A stretch of 64,000 nucleotides of DNA from Clostridia bacterium (GCA_017397955.1 JAFQHL010000045.1:104764-168763); one strand, 5' to 3'; counted from the stretch's first letter, positions 7,909 through 55,540 are shown. The notes: generated from the letters alone by a model not told the origin. Made by a program: numbers and translations.

Positions 7909-7925
7909 ATCGCAAGAGGTAGTTT

Positions 7926-21179: not shown

Positions 21180-21256
<77 letters not shown>

Positions 21257-21305
21257 AAATATATGACACGGTCAACCCCCGAGGGGAGACCCTGTATTGT
21301 TAAAA

Positions 21306-23160: not shown

Positions 23161-24027
23161 ATGAAAGGTATAGTTCTTGCAGGCGGCAAGGGTACAAGGC
23201 TTTATCCCCTTACAATGGCGGTTTCCAAACAGCTTTTGCCTGTTTATGATAAACCCCTTATCTATTACCCTCTTTCCACACTTTTACTTGGCGGTATAAA
23301 TGAAATACTTATTATTTCCACACCTGCAGATATAGAGGATTACAGAACGTTGCTTGGTGACGGTTCGGGGTTTGGCGCAAAGCTTTCTTACGCTGTGCAG
23401 GAAACACCCCGCGGCTTGGCTGATGCGTTTATTATAGGCAGGAACTTTATCGGTGACGACAGCGTTTGCCTTATCCTTGGTGATAATGTGTTTTACGGGC
23501 AGGACCTTACCCGTATACTACAGCGCGCGCTTAAGCGTACGGAAGGCGCAACAATTTTCGGCTATCCCGTTAAGGACCCTCGCGCCTTTGGCGTTGTGGA
23601 GTTTGATGAGAACAAAAAGGTTGTTTCAATAGAAGAAAAACCCGCAAAACCCAAGTCCAATTATGCGGTGCCCGGTCTGTATTTCTATGACAACCGCGTG
23701 TGCGAGATTGCCGCAAACGTTAAACCTTCCCCTCGTGGTGAGATAGAGATTACTTCCATAAACAACGCATATCTTGAGATGGGGCTTCTTAATGTGGAGC
23801 TTATGGGCAGAGGTATGGCATGGCTTGATACAGGCACGCCCGACGGTCTTTTAAAGGCGGCTATGTATGTGGAAGCAGTGCAGTCCAGACAAGGCTTTTA
23901 CATAGCCTGCCTTGAAGAAATAGCGTGGAGACGAGGTCTTATCACCAAAGAGCAGCTAAAAGCAGTAGGCGAAAAGCTTAAGATGACGGAATACGGTCAG
24001 TACATACTTTCACTTGTGGAAGATTGA
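23161..24027 (+). CDS. rfbA: glucose-1-phosphate thymidylyltransferase
   Basis: [18 protein letters not shown]...[20 protein letters not shown] is the canonical RmlA N-terminus; 288 aa. Confidence 0.95.
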
Positions 24028-24041
24028 GAGGATATAACGTA

Positions 24042-25097: not shown

Positions 25098-25114
25098 GTA
25101 GAGGTGAAAAACAA

Positions 25115-40496: not shown

Positions 40497-42389
40497 TTAA
40501 GCGCTCGGTACTTGTCTGACCTCAAAGGGCAGCGTCGGGGGATTATCCTTCATATCCTCCGCGAAGCTCTCGATGATATCCGCTTGGGTTTGAGCAAACT
40601 GTGCGGCTTTCTTCGCCTTTTCCTCCGCGCGTATTCTCTTACGACGGGCAAGCTCCTTGTCTCTGCGTTTGCGGTACAGTTCCTTCCAATACCGATCCTT
40701 CTCCATCTGCTCCAATTCCTCGGGTGTAGGTTCGGGCGCGGGAATACTGATATTGCCGACAAAGTTCAAATAGATCTCGACCTCTTGGATACGCTCTCCT
40801 GTGGAACGGTCGGGGGCGTGAACTACGATCTTGTCGATAAACTCGTTTATCATCGGCTTTGTAAGCTCGGAGAAGTCTGTGTACTTGGCGGCAAGAGACA
40901 GAAAAGCGTCGATGTTAACGCTGTCTTTCTCAAACTGTTCTACCGCATTTTCCGCTTCGGATATGGATATTTTGAGTTCCTTCTGCTCCTGCTCATAGCC
41001 GCTTGAGAGCATATCGAACTTTTCCTCGGATATTTTACCGACAGCGTAGGATTCGTAAAGACGTTTATAGAGAACGTCCAATTCCTCATAGCGCCGCTTG
41101 TCCTTGTTCAGCTTACGCTTTAATTCCTTTGCGGTGTTGTCTTGCTGTACCGCCGACGCTTCACGAACACGGGCAATAAAGTCATCCTTGTTGGCAATGG
41201 CGTATTGGCTGACCGTTCTGACGGTAAATAATACGATCTCTCTTAAAGAATTGGTACTGATATGATGTGCAAAGCATCCCTTGCCCTTATTCTTCTTGGA
41301 TAACTTATAAGTTGAGCAATTATACGCATCCGTTCCCGAATGCTTCGTTCCAATCGAATCCGTAAAAGGACGCGAGCGTTGGTTATACATCTTCTCACCG
41401 CAATCGGCGCAATAGACAAGTCCCGTAAATGGATTGGATTCTTCAATCGTATCACAGCGTCGGGGCGTTCCCAAGAGCTTTTGGCACAACTGCCAAGTTT
41501 CAAGGTCAATGATGGGTTCTTGAGTCCCTTCAAATACTGCCCACTTTTCGGGTGGGTTCTGAATACTTTTCTTATCCTTGTAGGATTTGCTTGTGGTACG
41601 GAAGTTGACAGTATATCCAAGATAGTCGGGCTTGGTCAGTATATGCTTGACCATCGTGCCACTCCACTTATATGGGTCTAACACATCAAGGCGATTCTTA
41701 TATACACCATTACTCCGCTTGGCTTGATAATAGCCGGGTGTTTCGATCTTATCCGCTTGCAGTTGCTTGGCGATCATCTGTATGCCTTTGCCCTCAATGC
41801 AAAGCCGATAGATGCGTCTGACGACCTCTGCCGCTTCTTCATCCACAAGCCAATGATGCTTGTCCTCGGGGTCTTTCTTGTACCCATAGGGCGCGTGAGA
41901 GGAAATATGCTTTCCCGAATTGCCGATGACCTGCTTGGTGGCTCTGATCTTGCGGCTGCAATCTCGCAAGTACCATTCATTCATCACGTTCAAAAAAGGT
42001 GCGAACTCGCTACTTCCTTGATTATCACTATCCACTCCGTTGGCAATGGCGATAAAGTGGATGTCCTTCTGCCCGAAATAGATCTCGGTGTAATAACCGA
42101 CTTCAAGGTAATTACGACCGATACGGCTCATATCCTTCGTGATGACCATACCGACCTTACCTGCTTCAATGTCCTCGATCAGACGTTTCCAATCGGGTCT
42201 GTCGAAGCTGCCGCCGCTGTAACCGTCATCGGTGTAGTGGACGATATTGGTGTAGCCGTTCTGTTCGCAATAGGTTTCGAGCATTTTCTTTTGATTCACG
42301 ATGGAATTGCTATCGCCAAGCTGCTCGTCGTCTCTCGATAGTCTTTCATAAAGGGCAGTAATCAATCCGTCAATCTGCTTGTTGTTCAT
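40497..42389 (-). CDS. large serine recombinase (TnpX-like)
   Basis: N-terminal resolvase domain (ALYERLSRDDEQ...SNSIVNQKKML...GYSGGSFDRPDW...VITKDMSRIGRN), recombinase domain, Cys-rich zinc ribbon (CADCGEKMY...YNCSTY), and a long coiled-coil tail; 630 aa. Confidence 0.92.
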   Translation of the reverse strand: MNNKQIDGLITALYERLSRDDEQLGDSNSIVNQKKMLETYCEQNGYTNIVHYTDDGYSGGSFDRPDWKRLIEDIEAGKVGMVITKDMSRIGRNYLEVGYYTEIYFGQKDIHFIAIANGVDSDNQGSSEFAPFLNVMNEWYLRDCSRKIRATKQVIGNSGKHISSHAPYGYKKDPEDKHHWLVDEEAAEVVRRIYRLCIEGKGIQMIAKQLQADKIETPGYYQAKRSNGVYKNRLDVLDPYKWSGTMVKHILTKPDYLGYTVNFRTTSKSYKDKKSIQNPPEKWAVFEGTQEPIIDLETWQLCQKLLGTPRRCDTIEESNPFTGLVYCADCGEKMYNQRSRPFTDSIGTKHSGTDAYNCSTYKLSKKNKGKGCFAHHISTNSLREIVLFTVRTVSQYAIANKDDFIARVREASAVQQDNTAKELKRKLNKDKRRYEELDVLYKRLYESYAVGKISEEKFDMLSSGYEQEQKELKISISEAENAVEQFEKDSVNIDAFLSLAAKYTDFSELTKPMINEFIDKIVVHAPDRSTGERIQEVEIYLNFVGNISIPAPEPTPEELEQMEKDRYWKELYRKRRDKELARRKRIRAEEKAKKAAQFAQTQADIIESFAEDMKDNPPTLPFEVRQVPSA

Positions 42390-42402
42390 TCTTGAACTCC
42401 TT

Positions 42403-42621
42403 TCAAGCAGGACGGCTCATTTGTGGTGACTCTATTATACCACACTTTTCGCCGTTTGTCGATACCTCATTTTTAATCATTCGTAAAATTTTATCCTCCA
42501 TCGTTTCTTTTGCGGTCTCGCTGAAGAAAACCTTCAGCTTGTAGGTGGTGCTCCCGATGCGGCGGGTGATGACGTTTTCCTTCAAATTGTTATTCTTTTC
42601 GTTCAATAGGCTTTCCTCCAA
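42403..42621 (-). CDS. TnpW-like transposon-encoded small protein
   Basis: RRIGSTTYKLKVFFSETAKETMEDKILRMIKNE is the pattern of TnpW-family proteins; sits directly upstream of the recombinase. Confidence 0.65.
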   Translation of the reverse strand: MEESLLNEKNNNLKENVITRRIGSTTYKLKVFFSETAKETMEDKILRMIKNEVSTNGEKCGIIESPQMSRPA

Positions 42622-43029
42622 AATTCAAATTTAGATTGGTCGCCGATCTGAGCGCGTCTGTCAGCCTCCTTACGCTTCGTTATTTGCGTCTGTGATCGAC
42701 TTATGTAAAGCCCTGCAACCGCATTTGCAGGGGAAATATCCACGTGGACACGATGTCCACTCGGGTTATATAGCGCGTTACGGATAATCTGTCTGTGTGG
42801 TGTGGGTCATTTTGACCCATACCACGCTCTCCGATTAAACGTAACAGCATACTTTTTATGTATCCGTGCGCTGTTCTCCTATCCCATTCTCTGCGACGTA
42901 TTCCGTATTGGCGTGCTCGGTCAAAAGACTGTCTTGGCACACATCGCCTACGGTAATATCCACACGGCGTTATTCGATTTTCAAGGAACGTAAATGTATA
43001 AGGCTAAATTGTGGGGGCAGTGTTCAAGT

Positions 43030-44250
43030 TACCTCTCACTATTTAGTTGGGAACTTTCTCGGCAAAAATTAGCCATCGACCAAGAAATAAATATCCCTCT
43101 AAGTGGTAGGCAGCGAGAATGGCTAAAACCCGCCACAAAATCAAAAAAATATTTTATGACCTCATCTAATAGGACAAAAATACGCGAATTGTATAGTGTC
43201 TGTAAAAATTCCTCTCTATTAGGTAGCCAGCGAAATTGGTAAAAACCCGACACGATTTCAAAATATCCCCCTAAGTAGTAGGCAGCGAAAAGGGCAAAAA
43301 GACAACCATAGCCTCAAAAAACTCTCCTTCACTTGACAACGGACATTTTTTCATTGAAATCGGGGGTAGGTAAACTCACCACTCTCAAATTTTCTCTCCT
43401 ACTATTCGTTGCTGACTTTTTGGGAAAATTTTGCGTGCCTTTCTAATATTCGTTACTGACTTTTTTGCAAAATAATAGCCTGAGAACATCAAAAAAATCC
43501 CCCTCTAAGTGGTAGCCGGCGAAACGACCCAAAAAGGGCAAGATTTTCAGAAAAAATTTTACTCCTCAATAGGTAGGCAGCGAGAACGGCTAAAACCCGA
43601 CATTTCCTCTAATATTTAGTTGGGAACTTTTTTGTCGTTTGAGCCAAACTTTTTTGAAAATAAAAGTCCCTCTAAGTGGTAGCCAGCGAGAAGCCTTGAT
43701 TTTTGCACTTTTGTGTAAATTTGTCCCTCTAATTGGTAGGCAGCGAAATCGCAGAAAAAGGGCAAGATTCTGAAAAAATATTTATCCCCTCAATAGGTAG
43801 CCGGCGAAAACGCGTAAAACCCGCCACTTTTTTCGTTTCTATTTTATTACCGTATCGAAAACGGCAAAATTGTCCTACGAAAACAAGCTCTCAATTGGTA
43901 GCCATCGAAAACCCCAATTTTATACCCCTCACTATTACGTTGCTTACTTTTTTTGAATTTGGCCGAAAATTTTTTCAAAAAAATTGAAGAAAATTTTTGC
44001 TCCCTTAAGTAGTAGGCGATAAGAATGGAGAAAACTCGACACTTCCTCTAATATTTAGTTGGGAACTTTTTTCACGTTTGGACGAAAAATACTTTGAAAA
44101 ATATGTCCCTCTAATTGGTAGGCAGCGAGAAGCCGCGATTTTTGCACTTTTCAGAAAAATTGTCCTCTACTTTTTAGTTGGGAACTTTTTTGAGAAATTT
44201 TGCGTGATACTTACAAATAATTTATCCTTCTAAGTAGTAGGCAGCGAAAA
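43030..44250 (+). repeat. non-coding array of ~20 degenerate 25-29-nt direct repeats (two motif classes) with recurring inter-repeat segments
   Basis: Class A CCCTCTAAGTGGTAGSCAGCGARAA starts at 43095, 43211, 43267, 43499, 43562, 43667, 43724, 43785, 43887, 44001, 44106 and 44225. Class B CCTCTAATATTTAGTTGGGAACTTTTTT starts at 43032, 43394, 43438, 43606, 43925, 44045 and 44164. Mean period is ~60 bp. No credible ORF. Confidence 0.9.
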
Positions 44251-44295
44251 GGGCAAAAATATAAGGCTGTTCGTAAAAAACAGCCTAAAAATTGA

Positions 44296-44330
44296 AAACG
44301 GCGGTGGAATTTTGTTTTCCACCGCCGTTT
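44296..44330 (-). terminator. rho-independent terminator after the 44343-45705 operon
   Basis: AAACGGCGGTGGAA-TTTTGT-TTCCACCGCCGTTT 14-bp stem. A second hairpin AGGCTGTT-N8-AACAGCCT lies at 44264-44287. Confidence 0.8.
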
Positions 44331-44342
44331 AAGGTCATTTAT

Positions 44343-44840
44343 TCAATTTGTTTCCATAACTCTTGCACAAGCCTCGGGTTCATATTTTATGCTTTCAATC
44401 ATTCGCTTGATGTTGTCTCGTTTCATAAAAGCTTCAATCTGATCTCGTTGTTCGTCGTTTTCAACCTCGTGTGTGATTGCTAAAACAAACCCGTTTTGTC
44501 CTTCACTGTTCATCGGATAGCCGAGTCGTTCTTCGTAGTATTCGTAAGACCACCCGCCGTTCCGATAGAAAGAAGCATAACCACTCATTCCATTACGTTC
44601 AACGGGAAAGATATTCCCGACGTTCTCATTTTCATCGTAAGCGAGGATCTGCGCTATTTCTCCATACGGAGATTTATCAAATTCTTCTGCTCCTATATCG
44701 ATCTGAAATCTTCCATCGTAGGTTTCGACTATAATCGTATCGGGGGATACAACGGACGGATCGGAAACAAAACACATATCCTCGGGCAATTCAAACGAAA
44801 AGCTCTGAGTATATAATCTTCCGTTTTTTATGTATAACAT
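44343..44840 (-). CDS. hypothetical protein
   Basis: 165-aa ORF whose start abuts the stop of the sigma-like gene; no family recognised. Confidence 0.5.
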   Translation of the reverse strand: MLYIKNGRLYTQSFSFELPEDMCFVSDPSVVSPDTIIVETYDGRFQIDIGAEEFDKSPYGEIAQILAYDENENVGNIFPVERNGMSGYASFYRNGGWSYEYYEERLGYPMNSEGQNGFVLAITHEVENDEQRDQIEAFMKRDNIKRMIESIKYEPEACARVMETN

Positions 44841-45479
44841 TTATTTTTCTTCCTTCCTGTTCGGTATAAATTTGTTCCAATTCGTATTGGTAATGCCGAG
44901 GTTTTCAAGCTCCACGGCAACCTCTACGATAGACTTTTTTCCCAAGTCCTTGATGCCCATGATCTCGTCCTCGGTAAGTTCAACAATGTCCTTTACCGTC
45001 TCATATCCTTTGGCGATAAGGCGGTTTATCGGTCTTACTGAAATATTCAATTCACTGATTCGACGCTGATACTTATCTTCACTGTAACGCTCTTCCTTTT
45101 CCAGCGCTATTTCTTTACATCTTTCCTCGTAGGTATGCTTACCGTACTTTATGTATCCAATCAACGGGGGATGATGAAGTTTAGAGATAGATCTATGCTC
45201 TAAGGTGCGGATGCGTTCTCCCGTAACGTCAAACTCTTTTGCGATAGCAGTATAGGTCATTTTCCGTGCGTAACGCATTTCGATAACTTTCTGATCGCGC
45301 GGCGGCAACGTAGAGAGCGCATATTCAAGTCCGGCAACCATATCCTCGGTTATATTATCCACGGGAATCTGTACGTTGAACCATTTATCTGTTGCAAGCG
45401 TTAAAAACAGATTGCGTGGGTATGGCTCCTTGTATGCTGCTTTAAGTATATTTTTTGTTTCATTATCCAATGCTTTCAT
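44841..45479 (-). CDS. sigma-70 region-4-like HTH protein with RpoA-CTD-like helix-hairpin-helix tail
   Basis: LPPRDQKVIEMRYARKMTYTAIAKEFDVTGERIRTLEHRSISKL (region 4 HTH), then LNISVRPINRLIAKGYETVKDIVELTEDEIMGIKDLGKKS (alpha-CTD-like). Confidence 0.7.
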   Translation of the reverse strand: MKALDNETKNILKAAYKEPYPRNLFLTLATDKWFNVQIPVDNITEDMVAGLEYALSTLPPRDQKVIEMRYARKMTYTAIAKEFDVTGERIRTLEHRSISKLHHPPLIGYIKYGKHTYEERCKEIALEKEERYSEDKYQRRISELNISVRPINRLIAKGYETVKDIVELTEDEIMGIKDLGKKSIVEVAVELENLGITNTNWNKFIPNRKEEK

Positions 45480-45705
45480 CCTCCTTGATCACTTTTATAC
45501 ATTCCTTGCACAAGCAGTATTTCGACTTGGCAGGGATAACGGCACCACAGCTATGACATACTGTTTGCTTCGGCGTTAAGACGATAGCTCCGTCCTTGAC
45601 CTCCATATCAAGATCGCATTTCGTATCGACACTCAATGCCTTTCTAAATTCTATCGGAAGAACGATCCTTCCAAGCTCATCAATCTTTCTTGTAATTACC
45701 AACAT
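45463..45705 (-). CDS. AbrB/MazE/SpoVT-family DNA-binding protein with C-terminal CxxC pairs
   Basis: ITRKIDELGRIVLPIEFRKAL swapped-hairpin motif; C-terminal CHSCG...CLCKEC. Confidence 0.75.
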   Translation of the reverse strand: MLVITRKIDELGRIVLPIEFRKALSVDTKCDLDMEVKDGAIVLTPKQTVCHSCGAVIPAKSKYCLCKECIKVIKEDESIG

Positions 45706-45816
45706 TTTGTTTCTCCTTCGCCTTCATATTATTTTACCATATTTTTTACCATTTGAAAATGGCATAGCAGTTCAATTTTTGCTGGCTCAGCAGTTCATTG
45801 ATGCTTTTATTCTCGT

Positions 45817-45958
45817 TGTCGAATAATGACGAAGGGTGCTTTGCGTTTCGACATAATATTACCCACCTTTCTATCGTGTTACGATTGCTCTTATCGCTAC
45901 GCTCACATTATAGCATAGGCGTATTGTCGAATTATGTTATAATCTCGTGTCGAAATAA
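45817..45958. promoter_or_regulatory. cluster of four TGTCGAA heptamers (operator candidates) in the regulator intergenic region
   Basis: TGTCGAATAAT at 45817, inverted TTCGACATAAT at 45847, TGTCGAATTAT at 45925, TGTCGAAATAA at 45948. Confidence 0.45.
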
Positions 45959-45982
45959 AAAAATCTGCGATTTCTCGCAGAT
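45955..45982 (-). terminator. terminator after XRE gene
   Basis: On the minus strand, ATCTGCGA-GAAA-TCGCAGAT is followed by TTTTTTT. Confidence 0.75.
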
Positions 45983-46008
45983 TATGTGGATAAGCTATTC
46001 AATTTCGT

Positions 46009-46338
46009 TTATTTTCTTCTTGCCGTTCTCAAAAGAGCATCGAGCACTTCAAAGATTCTTTGCTGTTCTTCAGCAGGAAGTGTTGCGATCTCGTCGGAAA
46101 GGCGAGAGGTGCGGTTCACGTAACCGTTCTTTATGACATCACGGAAAAGGTCGTCAGCCGTAATGTCAAGACAGTCGATGATCTGAACCAACAATTCCAA
46201 CTTGATGTTGTATGCACCGCGCTCCAACGCACTCATATAGTTCGGAGAAATACCGATCATCTCGGCAAGCTTCTCTTGGGGAATCTTTTTCTGTTTGCGA
46301 ATTTCTTTAATTCGGCGTCCGATCTCCTGTTCAATCAT
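46009..46338 (-). CDS. XRE-family HTH transcriptional regulator
   Basis: IGRRIKEIRKQKKIPQEKLAEMIGISPNYMSALERG is a canonical HTH_3. Confidence 0.85.
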   Translation of the reverse strand: MIEQEIGRRIKEIRKQKKIPQEKLAEMIGISPNYMSALERGAYNIKLELLVQIIDCLDITADDLFRDVIKNGYVNRTSRLSDEIATLPAEEQQRIFEVLDALLRTARRK

Positions 46339-46354
46339 AGTTTCACCTCCAATT

Positions 46355-46435
46355 CAATCGGTATAGCATAAGTATAATTGTTTTCCGATTGATTTAGAAG
46401 TAAGGTCTCCGATAGGAGCAATCGGAAACCGATAG
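46355..46435. promoter_or_regulatory. CAATCGG/CCGATWG palindromic motif set upstream of the XRE gene (operator candidates)
   Basis: CAATCGG at 46355-46361 and its complement CCGATTG at 46385-46391; CCGATAG at 46409-46415; CAATCGG-AAA-CCGATAG at 46419-46435. Confidence 0.45.
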
Positions 46436-46555
46436 ACAATGCCGCTTTTCGATTAGAAAATTGAAATTTGTAATGTCCGCTCAGCATTGTCTTGTTGATC
46501 GTCTTTATATTATATCATAAAAATGTTAAACTTTCCACCACGATAAATAGCAAGA

Positions 46556-46586
46556 CGGCGGTGGAAAATGTGTTATTCTCCACCGC
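46556..46586 (-). terminator. terminator hairpin after 46603-47016
   Basis: GGCGGTGGA-N13-TCCACCGCC. The stem sequence is related to the 44296-44330 terminator. Confidence 0.6.
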
Positions 46587-46602
46587 CGCAGCGTTATTGG
46601 CT

Positions 46603-47016
46603 TTATTCAGTTGTATCGTCACCGATAGCCGCCAAAGTGTTTGCGATCAATGTCTCGGTAGAAACGCCGTATTTAACCGCATTTTCATAAGAGCCGTCCA
46701 TCGTAACGATAGAAACCTTAGACTCATCAAGTGCATCCGCAACCGCGTTAAGCTCCGAAGGAGTACCAACCACTCTGTTGGAGGATGCCATTACGATGGT
46801 CTTAGTATCTGTGTTCTTTGCGTACTCAATGGCTTTTTTTAACGCATCGAGGCTTTCCGCACGGCTACCAATTGTGCTGACGGTCTCGCTGACGTCATAG
46901 CCTTGCTGCTTGCAATAGCTTTGAACCTTTTGCACTTGTCTCTCCAAGCACTCTGCCGCGCCGTCGTGATTGCTTTCTCTTACGTAAACAACCACTTGTT
47001 TATTTTCAGAAGTCAT
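46603..47016 (-). CDS. resolvase-N-terminal-domain-only protein (TnpY-like)
   Basis: VVVYVRESNHDG...LERQVQKVQSYCKQQGYDV resembles a serine-recombinase catalytic domain, but there is no DNA-binding domain; 137 aa. Confidence 0.5.
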   Translation of the reverse strand: MTSENKQVVVYVRESNHDGAAECLERQVQKVQSYCKQQGYDVSETVSTIGSRAESLDALKKAIEYAKNTDTKTIVMASSNRVVGTPSELNAVADALDESKVSIVTMDGSYENAVKYGVSTETLIANTLAAIGDDTTE

Positions 47017-47102
47017 AAGACAGCTCCTTTCTCATTGATAAATCGAACGTATTTATTATACCATAAAAATTTGAAAAAATCCAGTTCTTTATCACATTTT
47101 TA

Positions 47103-47384
47103 TTACGAATATATTTGAAACGTATAAACGCTATTCTTTGTCGTGAAGATCAGATAATCTTCGCGGTATTCATACGTTCCGCAGCTTGTTTGAAGATAGC
47201 GTCCGTCTCGGCTTTCGATATACATAAATTTCTCGCCGGGGTGTTTGTGTTCGCTTTCAAACATTCCAAGTATACCTTCCATTCCGACGTATCTCATTCG
47301 CCAAGACCATTCGTTTTCCTCAGCCTCGGTGATGGGAATGATCTCTATGAGCTTGGCGATATATGCGTTTACCTTTTTAGCCAT
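47103..47384 (-). CDS. hypothetical protein
   Basis: 93-aa ORF within the co-oriented element operon. Confidence 0.45.
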   Translation of the reverse strand: MAKKVNAYIAKLIEIIPITEAEENEWSWRMRYVGMEGILGMFESEHKHPGEKFMYIESRDGRYLQTSCGTYEYREDYLIFTTKNSVYTFQIYS

Positions 47385-47396
47385 AGCTTGTCCTCC

Positions 47397-47678
47397 TTAA
47401 AGCGTATCACGATGTTCACCGCTCAACACTTCAAGCATAATCCGAGCGCCGAGCCTAAAGGCGTACGTAAATATCTCTCGCTCGTTGATCTCGGACAGCT
47501 CTGACCAACAATCGTCAAACCTTTGCAGAATGTCCTTCTGCTTTTCGTCAAGGGTTGCGGATAGGTTGTCGTGATGGGTGGCAATGTAGCCGATAAGCTC
47601 CTTTGTTTCCTTCGTGGCGATTCTGCAATCGCTGTTCGGAGAGATATTGCCGTACCATAATTCGTTCAGTACCGTCAT
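47397..47678 (-). CDS. DUF6809-like small protein
   Basis: LNELWYGNISPNSD...FDDCWSELSEINEREIFTYAFRLGARIMLEV is a pattern seen next to TnpV in clostridial elements (from memory). Confidence 0.5.
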   Translation of the reverse strand: MTVLNELWYGNISPNSDCRIATKETKELIGYIATHHDNLSATLDEKQKDILQRFDDCWSELSEINEREIFTYAFRLGARIMLEVLSGEHRDTL

Positions 47679-48025
47679 CTGTAGATCACCTCCCGCAGCA
47701 CAAACTCCTTGGCGCAGGCGCGGACGTTATTCATTTCTTGCACCCAGCGCATTTGATCTGTAGCCTTGAGTTCCTCGGTGATGCCATTCTTTTTGACAAG
47801 TCCCGCAACGATTGATTCCATCTGTGCAACCGCTTGCTCATCAATGCTGTGAAGGTGCTCGTTGAGCCTACCTTCTGCTAAAAGGGTGGTGTAAGTCCCG
47901 CGTCGGTGGTTTTTGAGAAACGCGAGATGCAGGTTGCCGTACTTGCCGATCTTATAGTCGGTCTGTTCGGGCAGTTCAAGCTCGGGGTAAAACTGATCCC
48001 CGATTTGTTTGTAGCGCAGTTCCAT
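47675..48025 (-). CDS. TnpV-like transposon-encoded protein
   Basis: MELRYKQIGDQFYPELELPEQ...IGKYGNLHLAFLKNHRRGTYTTLL..GRLNEHL..IDEQA...KATDQMRWVQEMNNVRACAKEFVLREVIY matches the TnpV family pattern. Confidence 0.8.
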   Translation of the reverse strand: MELRYKQIGDQFYPELELPEQTDYKIGKYGNLHLAFLKNHRRGTYTTLLAEGRLNEHLHSIDEQAVAQMESIVAGLVKKNGITEELKATDQMRWVQEMNNVRACAKEFVLREVIYR

Positions 48026-48556: not shown

Positions 48557-48590
48557 AAAAAATTTCGCCCGCTGTGCGGGCGAAATTTTT
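48557..48590. terminator. bidirectional terminator
   Basis: AAAAAATTTCGCCCGC-TGT-GCGGGCGAAATTTTT between convergent genes. Confidence 0.8.
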
Positions 48591-50889
48591 ACGCTTTTGT
48601 TTTTTCAAGGTCCTTCTTGCGAATTTCCACACGCCTTACCTTGCCGCTGATGGTCTTGGGCAGCTCTTCCACAAACTCCACAATTCTGGGGTATTTGTAG
48701 GGCGCGGTGTGGGTCTTTACATATTCCTGAATTTCCTTCTTCAAGGCATCCGTGCCGACGGTATTCTTGGTAAGCACTATGGTCGCCTTTACAATCTGTC
48801 CGCGTACTTCATCGGGTACGGGGGTGATTGCACATTCCAACACATAAGGAAGCTCCATAATAACGCTTTCAATTTCAAAGGGCCCGATGCGATAGCCGCT
48901 GGACTTGATAACATCGTCGATACGACCCACATACCACAGATATCCGTCTTCGTCCATGGTTGCCTGGTCGCCTGTGTGGTAGAATCCGTCGTGCCATACT
49001 TCGTTTGTTTTTTCTTCATCAAGATAATAGCCAATGAACAATCCGCAGGGTGCGCCGTCCTTGGTGCGGATACAAATCTCGCCCGCATCACCGGTCTTAC
49101 ATTCGTTGCCGTCGGGGTCAAGAATTACCACATCGTACAAAGGACTTGCTTTACCCATAGAGCCAATCTTGGGTGTAGAGCCCACAAAGTTTGCGATGGA
49201 GAGCGTTGTTTCCGTTTGTCCAAAGCCTTCCATAATGGTAAGCCCAGTTGCCTTCTTAAACTGGTTGAACACTTCGGGGTTAAGCGCCTCACCTGCTGTG
49301 GTAGCGTACTGAATAGAGGAGAGGTCGTACTTAGAGAGGTCTTCCTTGATGAAGAATCTATACATCGTGGGCGGTGCACAGAATGTGGTAATACCGTACT
49401 TTTTAAAGAGGGGAAGAATATCGTCGGGATGGAACCTGTCAAAGTCGTAGGTGAAAACACCTGCTTCGCAGAGCCACTGACCGTAGAGCTTGCCCCAAAG
49501 TGCCTTACCCCAGCCTGTATCGGAGATAGTGAAGTGCAAGCCGTCACGCTTAACATTGTGCCAATGCTTGGCGGTGGGGTAGTGACCCAACGCATATTTG
49601 TAGGAATGGGTTGCAATACGGGGGTAACCCGTAGTACCCGATGTAAACAGCATAAGCATGGGGTCGTTACCGCAGGGGGTATCTTCCTTGCGGTAGAAAT
49701 GGGTACTGAAACGCTCCATTTCCACATTAAAGTCGTTCCAGCCGTCTTTTTTGCCGCCCACAAGAATCTTTATCATTTCGGGGAACTCTGCTGCCGCTTT
49801 TTCTGCTTCTTCCGATACAGTGCCGTCTGCTGTACAAACAATGGCCTTTACCTTGGCGGCTTTATACCTATAGGTAAAATCGTGCTCGACAAGCTGGTTA
49901 GTAGCGGGGATGGCAATAGCGCCAATCTTGTGCAGTGCAAGCATACAGAACCAGAACTGATAATGACGCTTGAGCACCAGCATAACCGTATCACCGCGCT
50001 TTATACCAAGGGATTCAAAGTAGTTTGCGGTCTTAGCGGAGTACTTCTTCATATCGCTGAAAGTGAATCTACGCTCGGTTTTATCACCTGCAACCCACAT
50101 CATAGCAAGCTTGTCGGGGGTCTTTTCCGCAATAGCATCAACGCAGTCAAAGGCAAAGTTGAATTTATCCTCGTTTTTGAAGCTTATGCCGTTGAATACG
50201 CCCTGTTCGTCGTAGGTGGATGTAATAAAGTTGTCGGCAACGGTTTTAACCTCGGTTTCTTCCTTAACAGCCTTTGCGGCGATAAAGGGCGCTTCGGGAT
50301 AAGTCTCGCTGTAATCCCCGTCCTGAGGATTAAGTACCACTGCGTGGAACTCACAGCCGCCCTCGCTTACGGCAATCATACCATGAGGGATAATACTGTT
50401 GTAAAAAATAGAGTCGCCTTCGTTAAGTACGCTTATGTGGTTGCCAACCTGTACTTTAAGGGAGCCTTTTACGATAACATCAAATTCTTGTCCGTTGTGG
50501 GAATTAAGCTTAATGGCTTTGTTTTGCTCTTCTTCCATGTAAGGCATTTTAACCAAAAAAGGCTCTGCCAATTTATCCTTGAATTTAGGTGCAAGGTTGT
50601 AATAAACCCCTGCCTGCTTTTTAATTATCTCAAGTCCTTCGCCTTTTCTCGTAATGGCAAAGGAGGTAAGTGTGGTACTTGTACCTTCTATAATATCAAC
50701 AACCTCGACATTACATGCCTTGGCACATTTGTAAATGAATGTAAAGCTAAAATCGGTTTCGCCCTGTTCAAGGAGTTTGTAGTCCTCAACAGATACGCCC
50801 GTAAGCTTTGCCAGCTCTTCTTGGGAATACCCCTTAGCTTCACGCAGGTCTTTAATTCTACCTGCAACATCTTTCAAATTGAACTCCAT
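48589..50889 (-). CDS. tripartite fusion: XRE-type HTH + cupin + AMP-forming acyl-adenylate/acyl-CoA ligase
   Basis: Residues 1-65 form an HTH_3 (IKDLREAKGYSQEELAKLTGVSVEDYKLLEQG). Residues ~110-190 form a cupin (GQEFDVIVKGSLKVQVG...GDSIFYNSIIPHG). The rest is an ANL-superfamily ligase (LMLFTSGTTGYPRIA, GYYHTGD, SSGYRIGPFEIE, PKTISGKVRR). Confidence 0.85.
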   Translation of the reverse strand: MEFNLKDVAGRIKDLREAKGYSQEELAKLTGVSVEDYKLLEQGETDFSFTFIYKCAKACNVEVVDIIEGTSTTLTSFAITRKGEGLEIIKKQAGVYYNLAPKFKDKLAEPFLVKMPYMEEEQNKAIKLNSHNGQEFDVIVKGSLKVQVGNHISVLNEGDSIFYNSIIPHGMIAVSEGGCEFHAVVLNPQDGDYSETYPEAPFIAAKAVKEETEVKTVADNFITSTYDEQGVFNGISFKNEDKFNFAFDCVDAIAEKTPDKLAMMWVAGDKTERRFTFSDMKKYSAKTANYFESLGIKRGDTVMLVLKRHYQFWFCMLALHKIGAIAIPATNQLVEHDFTYRYKAAKVKAIVCTADGTVSEEAEKAAAEFPEMIKILVGGKKDGWNDFNVEMERFSTHFYRKEDTPCGNDPMLMLFTSGTTGYPRIATHSYKYALGHYPTAKHWHNVKRDGLHFTISDTGWGKALWGKLYGQWLCEAGVFTYDFDRFHPDDILPLFKKYGITTFCAPPTMYRFFIKEDLSKYDLSSIQYATTAGEALNPEVFNQFKKATGLTIMEGFGQTETTLSIANFVGSTPKIGSMGKASPLYDVVILDPDGNECKTGDAGEICIRTKDGAPCGLFIGYYLDEEKTNEVWHDGFYHTGDQATMDEDGYLWYVGRIDDVIKSSGYRIGPFEIESVIMELPYVLECAITPVPDEVRGQIVKATIVLTKNTVGTDALKKEIQEYVKTHTAPYKYPRIVEFVEELPKTISGKVRRVEIRKKDLEKTKA

Positions 50890-50947
50890 AGTTTTTTGCT
50901 CCTTTCGTTTCCGCTTGCTTCGTTATGAAGCATAAATTTTCGGATTT

Positions 50948-51290
50948 GAATAAAACAAAACAGACCCATCTCAAATATACTTTGAGACGGGTGCAATTAT
51001 ACATATAAAATCACACTCGCGGTACCACTCAAATTGCGGACAAATAATCCGCCACTTTGCAGGCTCTAACAAGCCCTTGCTTTAACGCAGCATTACGGAA
51101 GAAGCCTACTGACCGCTTGGGTGTTCAGCCCTCCAACTCGGAAGTGATGGGTCATTGGAAAACTCTGCCATTGGCTCGCAGCAACCGCCAACTCTCTTAA
51201 GGCTCGGTAATCCGACCGTCTTCGTCATAGTTGTTTGTGATATTCAAATTTCTTGTTATGCATTATACTCGCGCAAAAACTGTTTGTCAA
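50948..51290 (-). promoter_or_regulatory. promoter plus T-box leader (tRNA-sensing riboswitch); specifier unresolved (Pro/Thr/His registers)
   Basis: All on the minus strand. Promoter: TTGACA (51290-51285), 17 nt, TATAAT (51267-51262). Stem I has GA-motif, AGAGAG and GCTGCGAG elements; an F-box-like GCGTTA is present. The T-box sequence AATTTGAGTGGTACCGCG lies at 51035-51018. The terminator ACCCGTCTCAAA/TTTGAGATGGGT (50992-50964) is followed by a U-tract. Confidence 0.85.
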
Positions 51291-51321: not shown

Positions 51322-53781
51322 TTATTTCTTAAGCCCCAAAATTTCGGCAGAGTCATCACGCATTTTGTATTTAAGAATCTTGCCCGCCGCATTCATGGGG
51401 AACTCGTCCACAAACAGGAAATAACGGGGAACCTTGTGGCGTGCTATGTAAGCGTTGCCAAACTCTTTCATCTCCGCTTCCGTTGCAGTCTCTCCCTTGT
51501 GCAATATTATCCATGCACAGCATTCCTCCCCGTACTTTTCGTCGGGAACGCCAACCACCTGTACATCGCGCACCTTGGGGTTGGTAAGATAAAACTCTTC
51601 TATCTCGCGAGGGTACAGATTTTCACCGCCGCGGATAATCATATCTTTAAGACGCCCCGTTACCTTGTAGTATCCGTCGGGTGTGCGACAACATATATCG
51701 CCGCTGTGCAACCAGCCGTCCGCATCTATAGCCTGTGCGGTAGCCTCCGGCATCTTATAGTAACCCTTCATAATATTAAAGCCGCGGGCTACAAATTCGC
51801 CACTCTCGCCGTCGGGTAACTCTTCTCCTGTTTCAGGGTCGATAACCTTACACTCCACACCGGGGAAAGGACTGCCTACGGTTTCCACACGGTGGTCAAG
51901 GTCTTCGTTAACCTCACCCATGGTACAGCCTGGGGACGCTTCTGTCTGCCCGTAAACGGAGATAATCTCTCGCATATTCATTTCGTCTGCGGCGCGGCGC
52001 ATAAGGTCGGCAGGGCAGTTTGCACCTGCCATAATGCCCGTACGCATATAGGAAAAATCCGTCTTTGCAAAATCGGGGTGGTTAAACATGGCAATAAACA
52101 TAGTAGGTACGCCGTTAAAGCAGGTTATATGCTCGTCATTAACGCAAGCCAAGGACGACTTAGGTGAAAAATAGGGGATAGGGCAAAGTGTGCCGCCGTG
52201 TGTCATCATGGAGGTCATGGAAAGCACCATGCCAAAGCAGTGGAACATTGGCACCTGTATCATCATACGGTCGGCAGTGGAAAGGTCCATCCTGTCGCCT
52301 ATGGTCTTGCCGTTGTTTACAATATTGCGGTGGGTGAGCATAACCCCTTTGGGGAAACCTGTTGTGCCGGAGGTGTACTGCATATTACAAACGTCGTCGG
52401 GTTTAACAAGGGATGCGCGCCTGCGTACCTCCTCCACAGGAACAAGGGAGGAGCGGGAAAGCATTTGTTCCCAAGTAAGACAGCCTTCCATGGAAAAACC
52501 TACGGTAACAACGTTACGCAGGAAGGGTAAAGCCTTAGAGTAAAGGGGCTTACCGGGTGTAAGACTTTCAAGCTCCGGACAAAGCTGCTTAATAATCTCC
52601 TTATAGTTGATGTCCTTGCAGTACTCAATCATCACAAGTGTATGAGTGTCTGACTGCTTTAACAAATACTCTATCTCGTGTATCTTATAAGCAGTGTTAA
52701 CAGTTACCAGAACAGCACCGATTTTAGTGGTTGCCCAGAAAGTAATAAACCATTCGGGCACGTTGGTTGCCCATACCGCCACATGGTCGCCCGCCTTCAC
52801 GCCCAAGGAAATAAGGGCGGCGGCACATTCGTCAACATCGCGGCGGAACTGCTTATAGGTTCTGGTATAGTCAAGGGTAGGGTACTTAAAGGCGTACTGG
52901 TCCGGGTAGGTTTCAGCCATAGTGTCAAGTACGTCACCAAAAGTAGCATCAATAACGTCGTATTTCTTCCACACAAAGGTGCCAGTTTTTGCCCTGTTGT
53001 AATAAGCGCGGTCGTAATTCTTCTTTTTGCGGCCAAGGGATGAAACGTAGTTTGCAAAATGGGTAAGCACTATATCCGCATCGTTTATTTCCTCGTTCCA
53101 AGCGGCACAAATAAAGCCGTCAAAATTAAGGGAGGAGAGGGCATTGATAAGCTTTTCTACGGGCAGTTCGCCTTCGCCTATAAGTACTGTCTTCCCGTCC
53201 TTCATATCGCCCAACCGTACATACTTGATATACGCACCCAGCGTTTTAATGGTGGTTTCAGCCGTCTCTCCTTCGCCGAAATATGTGCCTCTCACATTCC
53301 ATGAAGCACCTATTACCGCAGATGAGAAGAAGTTTATAATATCTATAACATTTTCCGTATTTGCCAAGTAGCCTACAGTCTCAAAGAGGATACCCACATC
53401 AGCGGATTCAGCACGCTTTATGGCCTTGCTCAGCTTTTCCTTCAGCAATTCGTAGGGCGCTTCCTCCTCTATACGAACGATGATGTTTTCAATTCCTGCG
53501 CTTGCCGCCATATCCACATATTTAAGTACTGCATCGGCAGTTGCATCCTCGCTGTCCAAGGGATGAGGATAGCTCAATGCGGAAACAGCAAGCCCGCGGT
53601 TTACAAGCTTTCTTTTGGAGTCCGCCGTACGGTCGCGGCGCAGAATACTGTCGTGGTGGGTGCTGCGCTCGTTTATTGCATCGTAAATCTCAAAGCCCGC
53701 AAATCCGTAGTCATAAGCATAACGGCAAAGCTCTATAAAGGAGGGACGATTTACGTACTTTGTAGAAAAAACAATTTTCAT
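51322..53781 (-). CDS. fusion: xylose-isomerase-like TIM-barrel domain + AMP-forming fatty-acyl-CoA ligase
   Basis: The N-terminal ~260 aa look like a sugar-phosphate isomerase/epimerase-type TIM barrel (FAGFEIYD..., ILFETVG..., VRLGD). The C-terminal ~550 aa form an ANL ligase (MQYTSGTTGFPKGVMLTH, GWLHSGD, IRGGENLYPREIE, PMNAAGKILK). The start is set at MKIVFS (53781), 1 nt after the upstream stop and preceded by GAGGAGGAG. Confidence 0.85.
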   Translation of the reverse strand: MKIVFSTKYVNRPSFIELCRYAYDYGFAGFEIYDAINERSTHHDSILRRDRTADSKRKLVNRGLAVSALSYPHPLDSEDATADAVLKYVDMAASAGIENIIVRIEEEAPYELLKEKLSKAIKRAESADVGILFETVGYLANTENVIDIINFFSSAVIGASWNVRGTYFGEGETAETTIKTLGAYIKYVRLGDMKDGKTVLIGEGELPVEKLINALSSLNFDGFICAAWNEEINDADIVLTHFANYVSSLGRKKKNYDRAYYNRAKTGTFVWKKYDVIDATFGDVLDTMAETYPDQYAFKYPTLDYTRTYKQFRRDVDECAAALISLGVKAGDHVAVWATNVPEWFITFWATTKIGAVLVTVNTAYKIHEIEYLLKQSDTHTLVMIEYCKDINYKEIIKQLCPELESLTPGKPLYSKALPFLRNVVTVGFSMEGCLTWEQMLSRSSLVPVEEVRRRASLVKPDDVCNMQYTSGTTGFPKGVMLTHRNIVNNGKTIGDRMDLSTADRMMIQVPMFHCFGMVLSMTSMMTHGGTLCPIPYFSPKSSLACVNDEHITCFNGVPTMFIAMFNHPDFAKTDFSYMRTGIMAGANCPADLMRRAADEMNMREIISVYGQTEASPGCTMGEVNEDLDHRVETVGSPFPGVECKVIDPETGEELPDGESGEFVARGFNIMKGYYKMPEATAQAIDADGWLHSGDICCRTPDGYYKVTGRLKDMIIRGGENLYPREIEEFYLTNPKVRDVQVVGVPDEKYGEECCAWIILHKGETATEAEMKEFGNAYIARHKVPRYFLFVDEFPMNAAGKILKYKMRDDSAEILGLKK

Positions 53782-53782
53782 A

Positions 53783-55171
53783 TTACTCCTCCTCAAACAC
53801 AATCTTGTTCAGGGCGTTGATATATGCTCTTATACTTGCCGCAACAATATCTGCTGAAATACCGTTGCCTGAATAAAGCTTGCCGTTGTTTCTGAGCCTT
53901 ACCAAAGCAGAGCCCAAAGCCTCTTTGCCTTCGGTTACGGATTGCACCTGAAAATCGTCCAGCTCATAGTGATAACCTATGCACTGCTCAATGGCACGGA
54001 AGGCAGAGTCAATAGGACCGTCCCCTGTGCTTACACCGCAAATAATGTCGTCGTTGAATCTTAGTGTTACCTGTGACATAGAGCTTGTAAGGTTACTGCT
54101 GTTTGTGGTGTAGCTTTCAAGGTGATAGGTAGAGGGCGCCTGCATAGCGGCGCTTGCAATAAGCGCGTCAAGCTCCTTTGCGCCTACGGCATCCTTCTTT
54201 TGACATACCTGTATAAGCGCCTTGTGCACTTTGCCGCAATCGGCCTCGGAAAGGTCGTAACCCAAAACACTTGCCGCCTGCGCTACTTGTGCAATGGTAC
54301 TGTCACAGTCAAGCAAAATCTTTTTCTTTTCGCTTACGGTGCTTTCGCTTTCGTAAACCTCGTGGTTTATTTTTGCAAGCATATCGTCAATACTAGCATG
54401 TATTTTTGTATTATTAAGCCCTGTTCCTATACCCAGTCGGTCAGAACAAACTTTAAGGGCATCTGCAATCTCACCCGTCAAAAGAGCATCGCCGCCCGCC
54501 ATAGAGCATTTAACACCGTCTGCGCCGTTGGCAACAGCGGCTATTGCAGAAGCTACCGCCATATTTATCTTATCGGAAACCTGCACGTATACGGGCACGT
54601 TTACAGCCGCTTTTACCGCTTGGGTCAGCGCGACAATCTCTTCTGGCAGAGATATTCCTGCATCATCACACAGTGTAATAAGGGTTGCGCCGTTAGCTAC
54701 CGCTTCTTTGGCTGCATTAACTACAAAGTCTGCTTCTGCGCGTGTAGCATCAAGGGCAGAAAACTCAACGTCCTCAGTAAGCCCTTTTGCAGCCTTTACA
54801 AGCTCTGCAATCTTTGCCAACATTTTGTCCGCCTTAATGTGGTAATTGTACTCCATTTGAACGGTAGAAACAGGAAGCTCTATCTGTAAACGGGGGCTTT
54901 TTGCCGATTTAATGCACTCCCATGCATCAACTACAGAGGCAACCGTAGAGCCTACGGGGATGGCAACCGTGGCGTTTTGCACATTCTGCGCTACAGTTTT
55001 ATATACAATGGAATCCTCACGCAGACTCTTAATGGGTGCAAGCTCCACGCTGTCGGCGCCGATAAGGTCGGCACAAACGGCAATAGCGGTTTTTTCGCGG
55101 AAAAGCAGGGCAACCTGGCGGTCTGCGGAAAGCTTTTTAAGTGTAATGTCGGATACATTGATTTTTCTCAT
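53783..55171 (-). CDS. LeuA/HMGL-like protein with degenerate catalytic motifs and retained LeuA C-terminal regulatory (dimerisation) domain
   Basis: Colinear by eye with 2-isopropylmalate synthase, but DTTLRDGEQ is replaced by SDITLKKLSADRQ and HxHNDxGxAxAN by VQVSDKINMAVAS. The C-terminal TGDGPIDSAFRAIE...VTEGKEALG...GISADIVAASIRAYINALNK resembles the LeuA_dimer domain. Confidence 0.65.
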   Translation of the reverse strand: MRKINVSDITLKKLSADRQVALLFREKTAIAVCADLIGADSVELAPIKSLREDSIVYKTVAQNVQNATVAIPVGSTVASVVDAWECIKSAKSPRLQIELPVSTVQMEYNYHIKADKMLAKIAELVKAAKGLTEDVEFSALDATRAEADFVVNAAKEAVANGATLITLCDDAGISLPEEIVALTQAVKAAVNVPVYVQVSDKINMAVASAIAAVANGADGVKCSMAGGDALLTGEIADALKVCSDRLGIGTGLNNTKIHASIDDMLAKINHEVYESESTVSEKKKILLDCDSTIAQVAQAASVLGYDLSEADCGKVHKALIQVCQKKDAVGAKELDALIASAAMQAPSTYHLESYTTNSSNLTSSMSQVTLRFNDDIICGVSTGDGPIDSAFRAIEQCIGYHYELDDFQVQSVTEGKEALGSALVRLRNNGKLYSGNGISADIVAASIRAYINALNKIVFEEE

Positions 55172-55214
55172 TTTCTAAAACCCTTTCACAAATAAAATTG
55201 GTGCCTTGGAATAT

Positions 55215-55540
55215 CAACAAAAAAACGTCCCCGTCCCCTTGTCGAATCAAAGAGACGAAAACGTTAAACACAATTTAACTTTCCGCGGTACCACTCTTCT
55301 TCATCCAGTAAAGGATGCACTCAGATGCCAACACATCTTTACTCTGTAACGGGAGCTACCCGTCTGTCATTACACCTAAAACAGGTTCACAACAGCCGCT
55401 CCGCGGTGAGTTCAGCAAGCTTTTCCCAATGTCTCACACCGACCGACATCTCTCTCAAGGCGAAAACACCTGCGTACTATTCCGCATCACTGCGTTTACT
55501 AATTGCTTGGAATTTTATCACAAGAAAATTTCTTTGTCAA
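55215..55540 (-). promoter_or_regulatory. promoter plus T-box leader, specifier CUC (leucine)
   Basis: All on the minus strand. Promoter: TTGACA (55540-55535), 17 nt, TAAAAT (55517-55512). Stem I has GATGCGGAAT-AGTA, AGAGAG and GGTGTGAG. The specifier loop is GAA-CTC-A (55413-55407), and CCGTTA is the F-box. The T-box sequence GAGTGGTACCGCGG lies around 55284-55297. A terminator (55265-55224) is followed by a U-tract. Confidence 0.88.

Follow-up and report, generated by a model that had tools for sequence, protein, structure and literature searches.

What does a bacterium switch on when it runs short of leucine, if not a leucine operon? The question is raised by a 64,000-nucleotide (nt) stretch of DNA from a Clostridia bacterium (GCA_017397955.1, JAFQHL010000045.1:104764-168763; hereafter the window), in which a T-box leader with a leucine specifier precedes two closely spaced genes. 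The first specifies a LeuA-like protein and the second a fusion of a xylose-isomerase-like TIM barrel with an adenylate-forming (ANL-family) acyl-CoA ligase. A preliminary description of the locus, made from its sequence, had proposed that the pair forms a leucine-starvation-induced route that activates a carboxylic acid precursor, for example isovalerate, and had left the TIM barrel without a function. The analysis reported here places a leucine codon in the specifier of the leader and of nearly all of its relatives, and makes it probable that the operon provides starvation-induced activation of isovalerate for the synthesis of leucine by reductive carboxylation, the substrate and the direction of flux being inferred. 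Coordinates refer to the whole 64-kb window unless a locus label (L###) stands with them; the leucine operon lies on its minus strand (Table 1).

The leucine T-box leader

The Rfam T-box covariance model (RF00230) matched the leader over its full length (model positions 1–219) at 125 bits (gathering score, 93; E = 2.8e-27), and the fold z-score of the leader is -3.9. Every element that had been listed for a complete T-box leader was located: a promoter, 13 nt upstream of the start of the Rfam match, the Stem I motifs, the T-box sequence and the terminator. In the alignment to the model, Stem I reads UGAUGCGGAAUAGUA...AGAGAG...GGUGUGAG...GAA-CUC-A-CCGC, and the AGUA...GAA S-turn, the CCGUUA motif and the GA/K-turn are present. 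The specifier position is occupied by CUC, followed by a purine (A) and then by the lower Stem I helix CCGC, so that the register proposed for leucine is borne out. Competing antiterminator and terminator helices are found, and the sequence GAGUGGUACCGCGG precedes the 18-bp terminator stem and its U tract. The UGGU of this sequence would pair with the ACCA 3' end of the tRNA. The earlier remark that UGGU matches an A73 discriminator, as in tRNA-Leu, is correct but does not discriminate between amino acids, as the Ile, Val and Phe leaders described below carry UGGU too. The two genes are coupled as had been described, with the ribosome-binding site as noted before the second gene and its start codon 1 nt past the stop codon of the LeuA-like gene; the junction reads GAGGAGGAG-TAA-T-ATG. 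Elsewhere in the window, at 21180-21394 (-), there are genes for tRNA-Met (CAU) and tRNA-Leu (UAA); the latter has the discriminator A73 and is not the isoacceptor for CUC.

The conservation of the specifier was assessed in relatives recovered by genome and metagenome scans, the loci of which are labelled L###. The genome scan (one genome per species), with a two-sequence alignment of the TIM domain of the fusion as the query, returned relatives in at least 308 species. The best 80 of these genomes are all metagenome-assembled genomes from the ruminant gut (goat, sheep, yak, deer and cattle), labelled as Oscillospiraceae, Acutalibacteraceae, Ructibacterium or Congzhengia. Among the 60 alignable orthologous leaders in front of the LeuA-like gene, the specifier is CUC in 57, CUG in two and CCC in one, and the following base is a purine in 59. 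A diverged type of leader (L078, L083, L048) and that of L170, a distant relative of the pair, also have CUC when aligned to the Rfam model.

The metagenome scan used a three-sequence alignment of intact-barrel sequences (see below) and recovered 80 loci of digester, bioreactor or gut origin. Some 60 of them specify TIM::ANL fusions that are ~53% identical to the window protein, and none of these distant fusions has a LeuA-like neighbour. A T-box core is found 100–200 nt upstream of the fusion in 31 of the loci, and all ten of the distant leaders that were checked with Rfam exceeded the gathering score. The leaders that directly precede distant fusions and could be aligned (n = 29; GC content 42–67%) carry CUC (27), CUU (1) or CUG (1).

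Orthologous and distant leaders taken together, a leucine codon (CUC, CUG or CUU) stands at the specifier in 88 of the 89 aligned sequences while the adjoining loop bases vary, so the leucine assignment is upheld by conservation as well as by the covariance model. The use of three synonymous leucine codons across otherwise dissimilar leaders is the strongest non-experimental evidence for a leucine signal. It also bears on the view that the leader is a relic or a chance match, or that the specifier has been mis-registered and the signal is not leucine. Such a view could draw on the CCC of a single orthologous leader (L036, about 6300–6575), which may reflect either a genuine substitution or an error of sequencing, and on two loci (L024, L025) in which the same genes lack a T-box. 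It is effectively excluded, however, by the strength of the match (125 bits, E = 2.8e-27), by a promoter and a terminator in register, and by the occurrence, in leaders that share little sequence, of synonymous leucine codons and, but for the single CCC, of no other amino acid. The comparison also shows the fusion, rather than the LeuA-like gene, to be the ancient member of the leucine regulon. Neighbour clustering detected no conserved partner near the distant fusions, and a Pfam search of ten flanking genes returned unrelated functions.

The ligase fusion

Pfam and fold prediction agree on the TIM-barrel::acyl-CoA-ligase architecture given in the preliminary description for the 819-amino-acid (aa) product of the second gene, with the qualification that the barrel is degenerate in the lineage of the window. 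When representatives of 50%-identity clusters were searched, the architecture proved restricted to a handful of clusters, and a homologue search with the fusion returned close relatives only (at least 88% identical). The core motifs of the ANL domain, as read from the translation, are intact and include the catalytic Lys (YTSGTTGFPKG, YGQTE, GWLHSGD, GRLKDMIIRGGENLYP and AAGKILK); the set comprises the A3 P-loop, A5, A7, the A8 hinge and the A10 Lys. The domain belongs to a medium-chain, FadD/PRK12583-like subfamily, its best NCBIfam match being PRK12583 (671 bits versus a cut-off of 832). There is no characterised close relative of this domain in the PDB. YngI, an ANL ligase of the leucine-catabolic yng operon of Bacillus subtilis, may be related to it.

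An AlphaFold2 model of the barrel (predicted local distance difference test score 87.7) was grouped by Foldseek with UlaE, the ketose 3-epimerases and AsbF, at a template modelling (TM) score of about 0.76 and 13–18% sequence identity, and a sequence search of the PDB with the TIM domain gave no significant match. Three of the four ligands of the Glu-Asp-His-Glu metal site are lost from the window barrel: E134 is kept while the Asp, His and Glu are replaced by N162, R189 and A227, respectively. E134, these three residues and R164 are invariant in 68 orthologues of the fusion. The distant fusions retain the Glu-Asp-His-Glu site, with D-H-H present in 62 of 62. The two states of the barrel are matched by the distribution of the LeuA-like gene, which occurs only where the barrel Asp has become Asn (68/68 orthologues of the ruminant clade, and L170) and is absent from the neighbourhood of all 62 fusions with an intact D-H-H. 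The degenerate barrel may serve as a docking platform for the LeuA-like protein.

The intact barrels of the distant fusions suggest another possibility, namely that the ligase acts on a different leucine-related acid (isocaproate, 2-hydroxyisocaproate or 2-oxoisocaproate), or uses an acceptor other than CoA, and that the barrel performs a second step which was lost or handed over in the ruminant clade. A complete E-D-H-E site in 62 distant fusions, within a fold like that of metal-dependent epimerases and dehydratases, implies a catalytic activity for which isovalerate activation has no need; the ANL domain is without a characterised close relative, and an Amidohydro_2 gene recurs beside the fusion. 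We nevertheless consider this quite improbable, as the Ile, Val and Phe modules described below all indicate acids one carbon shorter than the amino acid (n-1 acids), the clusters with oxidoreductase and aminotransferase genes suit the carboxylation of an n-1 acyl-CoA, and T-box control does not extend to the barrel's stand-alone relatives. Two such relatives (P0387, P0367) have neither a T-box nor informative neighbours.

The LeuA-like protein

The description of the first gene product as LeuA-like holds for its architecture, an HMGL-like barrel followed by a LeuA_dimer regulatory domain (PF08502, E = 8e-31, profile positions 4–130 of 131), and does not extend to its activity. The NCBIfam cut-offs for LeuA (TIGR00973 / NF002086) are all missed (241.6 versus 532, and 224 versus 598.7). 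Alignment to solved LeuA structures shows LRDGEQ replaced by LKKLSA and HCHND by QVSDK (HxH to QVS), which removes the catalytic Arg-Asp and the metal-binding HxH; none of the three metal ligands is left, nor is the Arg that binds the substrate. The replacements are fixed in 67–71 of 72 orthologues. The protein was therefore ruled out as a 2-isopropylmalate synthase, on the missed cut-offs and on the absence of the catalytic residues. It is annotated by NCBI as 'hypothetical protein', and a homologue search returned close relatives only (at least 74% identical).

The best-conserved part of the protein is the regulatory domain, with 87% identity versus 70% for the barrel. The relative specified by L170 is only 44% identical overall, and in it the regulatory domain is nearly unchanged while the catalytic region has diverged. 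Both degenerate domains, that of the LeuA-like protein and the TIM barrel of the fusion, are under purifying selection, the ratio of nonsynonymous to synonymous substitution rates (dN/dS) being about 0.07–0.10; dS is saturated and the values are rough. From these patterns we infer that the LeuA-like protein and the TIM barrel are probably non-catalytic partners. A more specific role for the LeuA-like protein, in which it would sense leucine for the ligase without itself being a catalyst, is put forward tentatively from the conservation of its regulatory domain and the analogy with HisZ that is drawn below.

The invariance of the replacement residues (K12, K13, Q197 and S199 in the LeuA-like protein; N162, R164, R189 and A227 in the barrel), together with the purifying selection noted above, would also be expected if one or both were active enzymes that had built a new, metal-independent site from invariant Lys and Arg replacements. 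This is unlikely for the LeuA-like protein in view of the loss of the three metal ligands that define the DRE-TIM metallolyases and of the substrate-binding Arg, and of a barrel that evolves faster than the regulatory domain, a trend repeated in L170; we regard the proposal as a whole as unlikely.

Gene neighbourhoods of related loci

Open reading frames (ORFs) were clustered over the 57 related loci of at least 9 kb. The LeuA-like gene (56/57 loci) and the fusion gene (55/57) are adjacent in every related locus with enough flanking sequence. The most frequent neighbours are ligases, either a helix-turn-helix (HTH)-cupin::ANL ligase, designated lig2 (27 loci), or a PaaK-like ligase (13 loci). 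Less frequent are genes for an Amidohydro_2 protein (12 loci), an ACT-pair protein (9), an ACT-metallo-beta-lactamase protein (5), a class IV aminotransferase (4) and the alpha, beta and gamma subunits of a 2-oxoacid:ferredoxin oxidoreductase (3).

The preliminary description had raised the question of whether the fusion sits next to 2-oxoacid:ferredoxin oxidoreductase or ilv/leu genes elsewhere. In two loci, L024 (5766-15379) and L025 (5795-15594), the oxidoreductase and a class IV (branched-chain) aminotransferase are clustered with the pair. The genes are co-directional, in the order Amidohydro_2, LeuA-like, fusion, Aminotran_4 (class IV), ParA/CbiA-like, oxidoreductase alpha, beta and gamma, and HTH-cupin, and the intervals between them are mostly overlaps or short gaps. 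The final HTH-cupin protein stands alone (183 aa). Neither locus has a T-box upstream of the Amidohydro_2/LeuA-like cluster, and the stand-alone HTH-cupin protein may replace the riboswitch as regulator. Adjacency takes other forms in L075, where oxidoreductase and aminotransferase genes and one further gene are followed by the T-box, the LeuA-like gene, the fusion and Amidohydro_2, and in L169, where a decayed LeuA-like/fusion remnant is followed by the aminotransferase and an Amidohydro_2 gene. In L036, genes for Amidohydro_2, the aminotransferase, a PaaK-like ligase and an ACT protein lie upstream of the T-box, the aminotransferase being the only one of the linked pathway enzymes. The aminotransferase, oxidoreductase and ligase classes thus occur in at least four different arrangements across the related loci.

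The Amidohydro_2 gene (PF04909, ~265–273 aa) lies directly beside the fusion in L074 (4468-5289) and 11 other loci, and is found at 9078-9875 in L169. The Amidohydro_2 family includes reversible non-oxidative decarboxylases.

A second T-box unit and parallel modules

Directly downstream of the fusion, and before lig2, lies a second T-box that had not been reported. Its score of 92.7 bits is 0.3 under the gathering score of 93, and it is missed at the default threshold; its orthologues score 98–112 bits. The 3' side of the specifier loop reads GACCC-AUC-A, followed by the helix CUUC. The ligase that it precedes is 56% identical, over 523 aa that span the whole ANL domain, to MacsMa of Methanosarcina acetivorans (PDB 3ETC), the preferred substrate of which is 2-methylbutyrate (PMC10455477). 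The best NCBIfam match of lig2 is MbcS (450, versus an equivalog cut-off of 850); MbcS of Staphylococcus aureus activates 2-methylbutyrate and isobutyrate, with a preference for the former (PMC10026030). On this basis lig2 is predicted to be a 2-methylbutyrate-CoA ligase. Its AUC specifier agrees with the substrate of its relatives, because 2-methylbutyrate is the n-1 acid of isoleucine. The two ligases of the window share only 24% identity and belong to different ANL subfamilies. A 784-aa ORF on the plus strand (48574-50928) was rejected as a gene, being the antisense shadow of lig2.

Table 1. Coordinates of the leucine operon and of the adjoining isoleucine unit, counted from the first nucleotide of the window.
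Feature	Position (nt)	Strand	Basis
Sigma-70-type promoter, TTGACA-17-TAAAAT, TG-extended	55512..55540	-	11/12 hexamer matches
T-box leader #1: Stem I with K-turn, specifier loop, AG bulge, distal loop; Stem III; antiterminator	55248..55499	-	RF00230
Specifier codon CUC (Leu), GAA before, A after	55408..55410	-	Covariance-model alignment
Conserved 14-nt T-box sequence GAGUGGUACCGCGG	55283..55296	-	Covariance-model alignment
Intrinsic terminator of leader #1, 18-bp stem then T run	55224..55265	-	Hairpin and fold analysis
LeuA-like pseudoenzyme, 462 aa: degenerate HMGL-like (DRE-TIM) barrel and LeuA C-terminal regulatory domain	53783..55171	-	Pfam HMGL-like, LeuA_dimer
TIM barrel::ANL ligase fusion, 819 aa	51322..53781	-	Pfam AP_endonuc_2, AMP-binding, AMP-binding_C
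Xylose-isomerase-like barrel of the fusion, ~aa 1–250	53032..53781	-	PF01261, 2e-13
Adenylate-forming ligase of the fusion, ~aa 281–819	51325..52941	-	PF00501, 3.7e-96; PF13193, 2.5e-15
Promoter of the second unit, perfect TTGACA-17-TATAAT	51262..51290	-	32 nt past the fusion stop codon
T-box leader #2, specifier AUC (Ile) at 51146..51148	50980..51237	-	RF00230, 92.7 bits, E = 5.5e-21
Terminator of leader #2	50964..50992	-	Hairpin and fold analysis
lig2: HTH_3-Cupin_2::ANL ligase, 766 aa	48589..50889	-	Pfam

Related genomes carry further units of this kind. The specifiers of 41 leaders in front of HTH-cupin::ANL ligase homologues are AUC in 38 and GUA (Val) in three, with variable flanking loop bases. 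The GUA leaders (L078 2966-3201, L083 3110-3358, L024 5059-5294) precede a paralogue that is ~60% identical to lig2, and for which isobutyrate is the predicted substrate. The leaders of the PaaK-like ligases have UUC (Phe) in 12 of 12 cases, including L059 4102-4347, L064 13292-13543 and L047 14038-14284; the ligase gene is followed by that of a 143-aa ACT-pair protein in nine loci, and the Phe unit is often found directly upstream of the leucine operon. In L169, a unit at 1-4803 (-) is divergent from the remnant of the pair and consists of a T-box followed by genes for an ANL ligase, IorA-like and IorB-like oxidoreductase proteins and a PaaK-like ligase. One covariance-model alignment gives its specifier as, apparently, UAC (Tyr), and the unit looks like an aromatic counterpart of the Leu, Ile, Val and Phe arrangement. 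For the ligases behind the Ile, Val and Phe T-boxes, the nearest relatives of known activity act on the corresponding n-1 acids.

The likeness of lig2 to MbcS also suggests a role in lipid synthesis, in which isovaleryl-CoA (and, from lig2, 2-methylbutyryl-CoA) would be supplied as primers for branched-chain fatty acids, so sparing leucine and isoleucine from degradation for membrane lipid, a role that has been proposed for MbcS in S. aureus. Through MbcS, 2-methylbutyrate and isobutyrate from outside the cell reach the membrane fatty acids (PMC10026030), and the enzyme is upregulated at lowered CodY activity, which its authors read as limitation for branched-chain amino acids (PMC13584741). 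MbcS is the best NCBIfam match of lig2, and the window carries no oxidoreductase or aminotransferase gene. Primer supply, however, requires neither the class IV aminotransferase nor the oxidoreductase that are clustered with the ligases in L024, L025, L075 and L169 (in L036, the aminotransferase), and the Phe module, with its PaaK-like ligase, has a like architecture although phenylacetyl-CoA is not a usual primer of fatty acids. As the main function of the operon, primer supply has a rather low probability; it and leucine synthesis are not mutually exclusive.

Proposed function of the operon

The explanation favoured here is leucine synthesis from isovalerate by reductive carboxylation. Under leucine limitation, uncharged tRNA-Leu(GAG), which reads CUC, would stabilise the antiterminator and allow polymerase to read into the two-gene operon. 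The ANL domain of the 819-aa protein would be the working enzyme, converting isovalerate, ATP and CoA to isovaleryl-CoA, with the isovalerate that is abundant in the gut as the source of substrate. A 2-oxoacid:ferredoxin oxidoreductase would then carboxylate isovaleryl-CoA reductively to 2-oxoisocaproate, from which a branched-chain aminotransferase would form leucine, as in the classical carboxylation of isovalerate in the rumen; in the source genome, both enzymes would be encoded outside the window. The LeuA-like protein may act as the leucine-sensing partner of the ligase, perhaps docked on the degenerate barrel. Assimilation is proposed rather than degradation because an AMP-forming ligase pushes its reaction towards the acyl-CoA and a T-box responds to starvation by inducing its genes.

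The Ile, Val and Phe units would act alike, on 2-methylbutyrate, isobutyrate and phenylacetate, respectively, with the ACT-pair protein (for the PaaK-like ligase) and the fused HTH-cupin (for the Ile and Val ligases) in the same part as the LeuA-like sensor. In its widest form, and here with considerable doubt, the proposal is of a modular, hitherto undescribed regulon in gut and rumen Clostridia in which each amino acid derived from an n-1 acid (Leu, Ile, Val, Phe and perhaps Tyr) has its own T-box-gated acid-CoA ligase and an amino-acid-sensing, non-catalytic module: a dead LeuA for Leu, the ACT-pair for Phe and the fused HTH-cupin for Ile and Val. If true, the regulon would be controlled twice, by tRNA charging at the level of transcription and by end-product feedback on the enzyme.

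Several observations weigh against these proposals. Isovalerate is assigned to the fusion ligase by analogy, because its ANL domain is without a characterised close relative, and the sensor role of the LeuA-like protein likewise comes solely from its conservation pattern and from analogy. Pathway linkage occurs in only 3–4 of the 57 related loci, and the 64-kb window contains no oxidoreductase, aminotransferase, ilv or leu genes. The intact barrel of the distant fusions is given no role by a simple ligase model, and the Amidohydro_2 gene that recurs in 12 loci has no place in it. Roughly one distant fusion in two lacks a T-box and lies among unrelated genes, and the specifier of the leader in L036 is a proline codon.

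Other features of the window

The region of the Leu and Ile ligases is flanked on one side by transporter genes and on the other by an integrated mobile element (~40497-48025) which, according to the annotation of an identical contig (L001), encodes a large serine recombinase (630 aa), TnpW, TnpV, a small resolvase, a MazE-like protein and sigma-70 region-4 proteins. A glycogen metabolism cluster at 196-9806 (+) comprises genes for an amylase-family protein, two nucleotidyl transferases (GlgC/GlgD-like), starch synthase, glycogen phosphorylase and a second alpha-amylase-family protein. A 641-aa protein with a type I dockerin (16507-18432, -) fits with cellulosome-bearing Oscillospiraceae, and a nucleotide-sugar cluster at 23161-27354 (+) specifies an NTP transferase, a 4,6-dehydratase, a DegT aminotransferase and an ATP-grasp protein. 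The flanks of related loci include a c-di-AMP riboswitch (L134 12501-12629, -) and a glycine riboswitch (L059 1619-1710, -), both unrelated to the leucine operon.

Comparison with known systems

Since the 1960s, branched-chain volatile fatty acids have been known as a requirement of cellulolytic rumen bacteria, which convert them to branched-chain amino acids. Work on rumen bacteria by Allison and co-workers between 1962 and 1971 linked isovalerate to Leu, 2-methylbutyrate to Ile, isobutyrate to Val and phenylacetate to Phe (as cited in PMC7356843). The modules described here show the same pairs of acid and amino acid, the same habitat (the ruminant gut, for the best 80 related genomes) and, in L024 and L025, the set of ligase, oxidoreductase and aminotransferase. 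The Allison-era work was physiological and enzymological, and is not known to have defined genes, their regulation or accessory proteins. A proteomic study of Prevotella bryantii in 2020 still called the formation of amino acids from branched short-chain acids, the reverse reaction, 'not proven yet' (PMC7709123), and no description of the genes that activate branched-chain acids in the rumen, or of their regulation, was found in the open-access literature. The locus provides candidate genes for this activation, and the riboswitch in front of each tells which amino acid it belongs to. They are present in over 300 species-level genomes of Oscillospiraceae from the ruminant gut. The pathway thereby becomes directly testable. 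The result bears on the supplementation of feed with branched-chain volatile fatty acids.

Leader #1 shares with the leucine T-boxes of Bacillus subtilis (leuS, ilvBHC-leuABCD and yvbW; RF00230) the Stem I with K-turn, the specifier loop, the distal loop, the UGGN T-box sequence, the alternative helices and the leucine specifier. It differs in what it controls: the place of an aminoacyl-tRNA synthetase, a transporter or a classical biosynthetic operon is taken by a ligase that activates an acid. The RegPrecise compendium of 2013, in which 64 amino-acid biosynthesis genes are under T-box regulation, has no acyl-CoA ligase, paaK, ior or vor gene (PMC3766115), and a search of the open-access literature found no link between T-boxes and acyl-CoA ligases, isovalerate or reductive carboxylation. 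The locus extends the T-box regulon to a new functional class, acid-activating salvage enzymes.

Of the proteins, lig2 resembles MacsMa (56% identity) and MbcS (its best NCBIfam match) and differs from them by its N-terminal HTH_3-Cupin_2 region and its Ile T-box. The LeuA-like protein shares with 2-isopropylmalate synthase (LeuA) the HMGL-like and LeuA_dimer architecture and a conserved regulatory domain, and lacks the catalytic Arg-Asp and the HxH. HisZ, a catalytically inactive paralogue of HisRS, is the histidine-sensing regulatory subunit of the ATP phosphoribosyltransferase HisG. The likeness to HisZ is a conceptual analogy only, in that both would be dead paralogues from the pathway of the same amino acid that keep end-product binding and are co-expressed with an enzyme; the families are unrelated, and leucine binding by the LeuA-like protein is predicted. 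If the analogy is true, the dead LeuA would represent a new class of pseudoenzyme, an allosteric subunit recruited by an unrelated enzyme. With its two conserved pseudoenzyme domains, the locus is a case of a known class of riboswitch gating an undescribed, gene-level solution to a long-known pathway.

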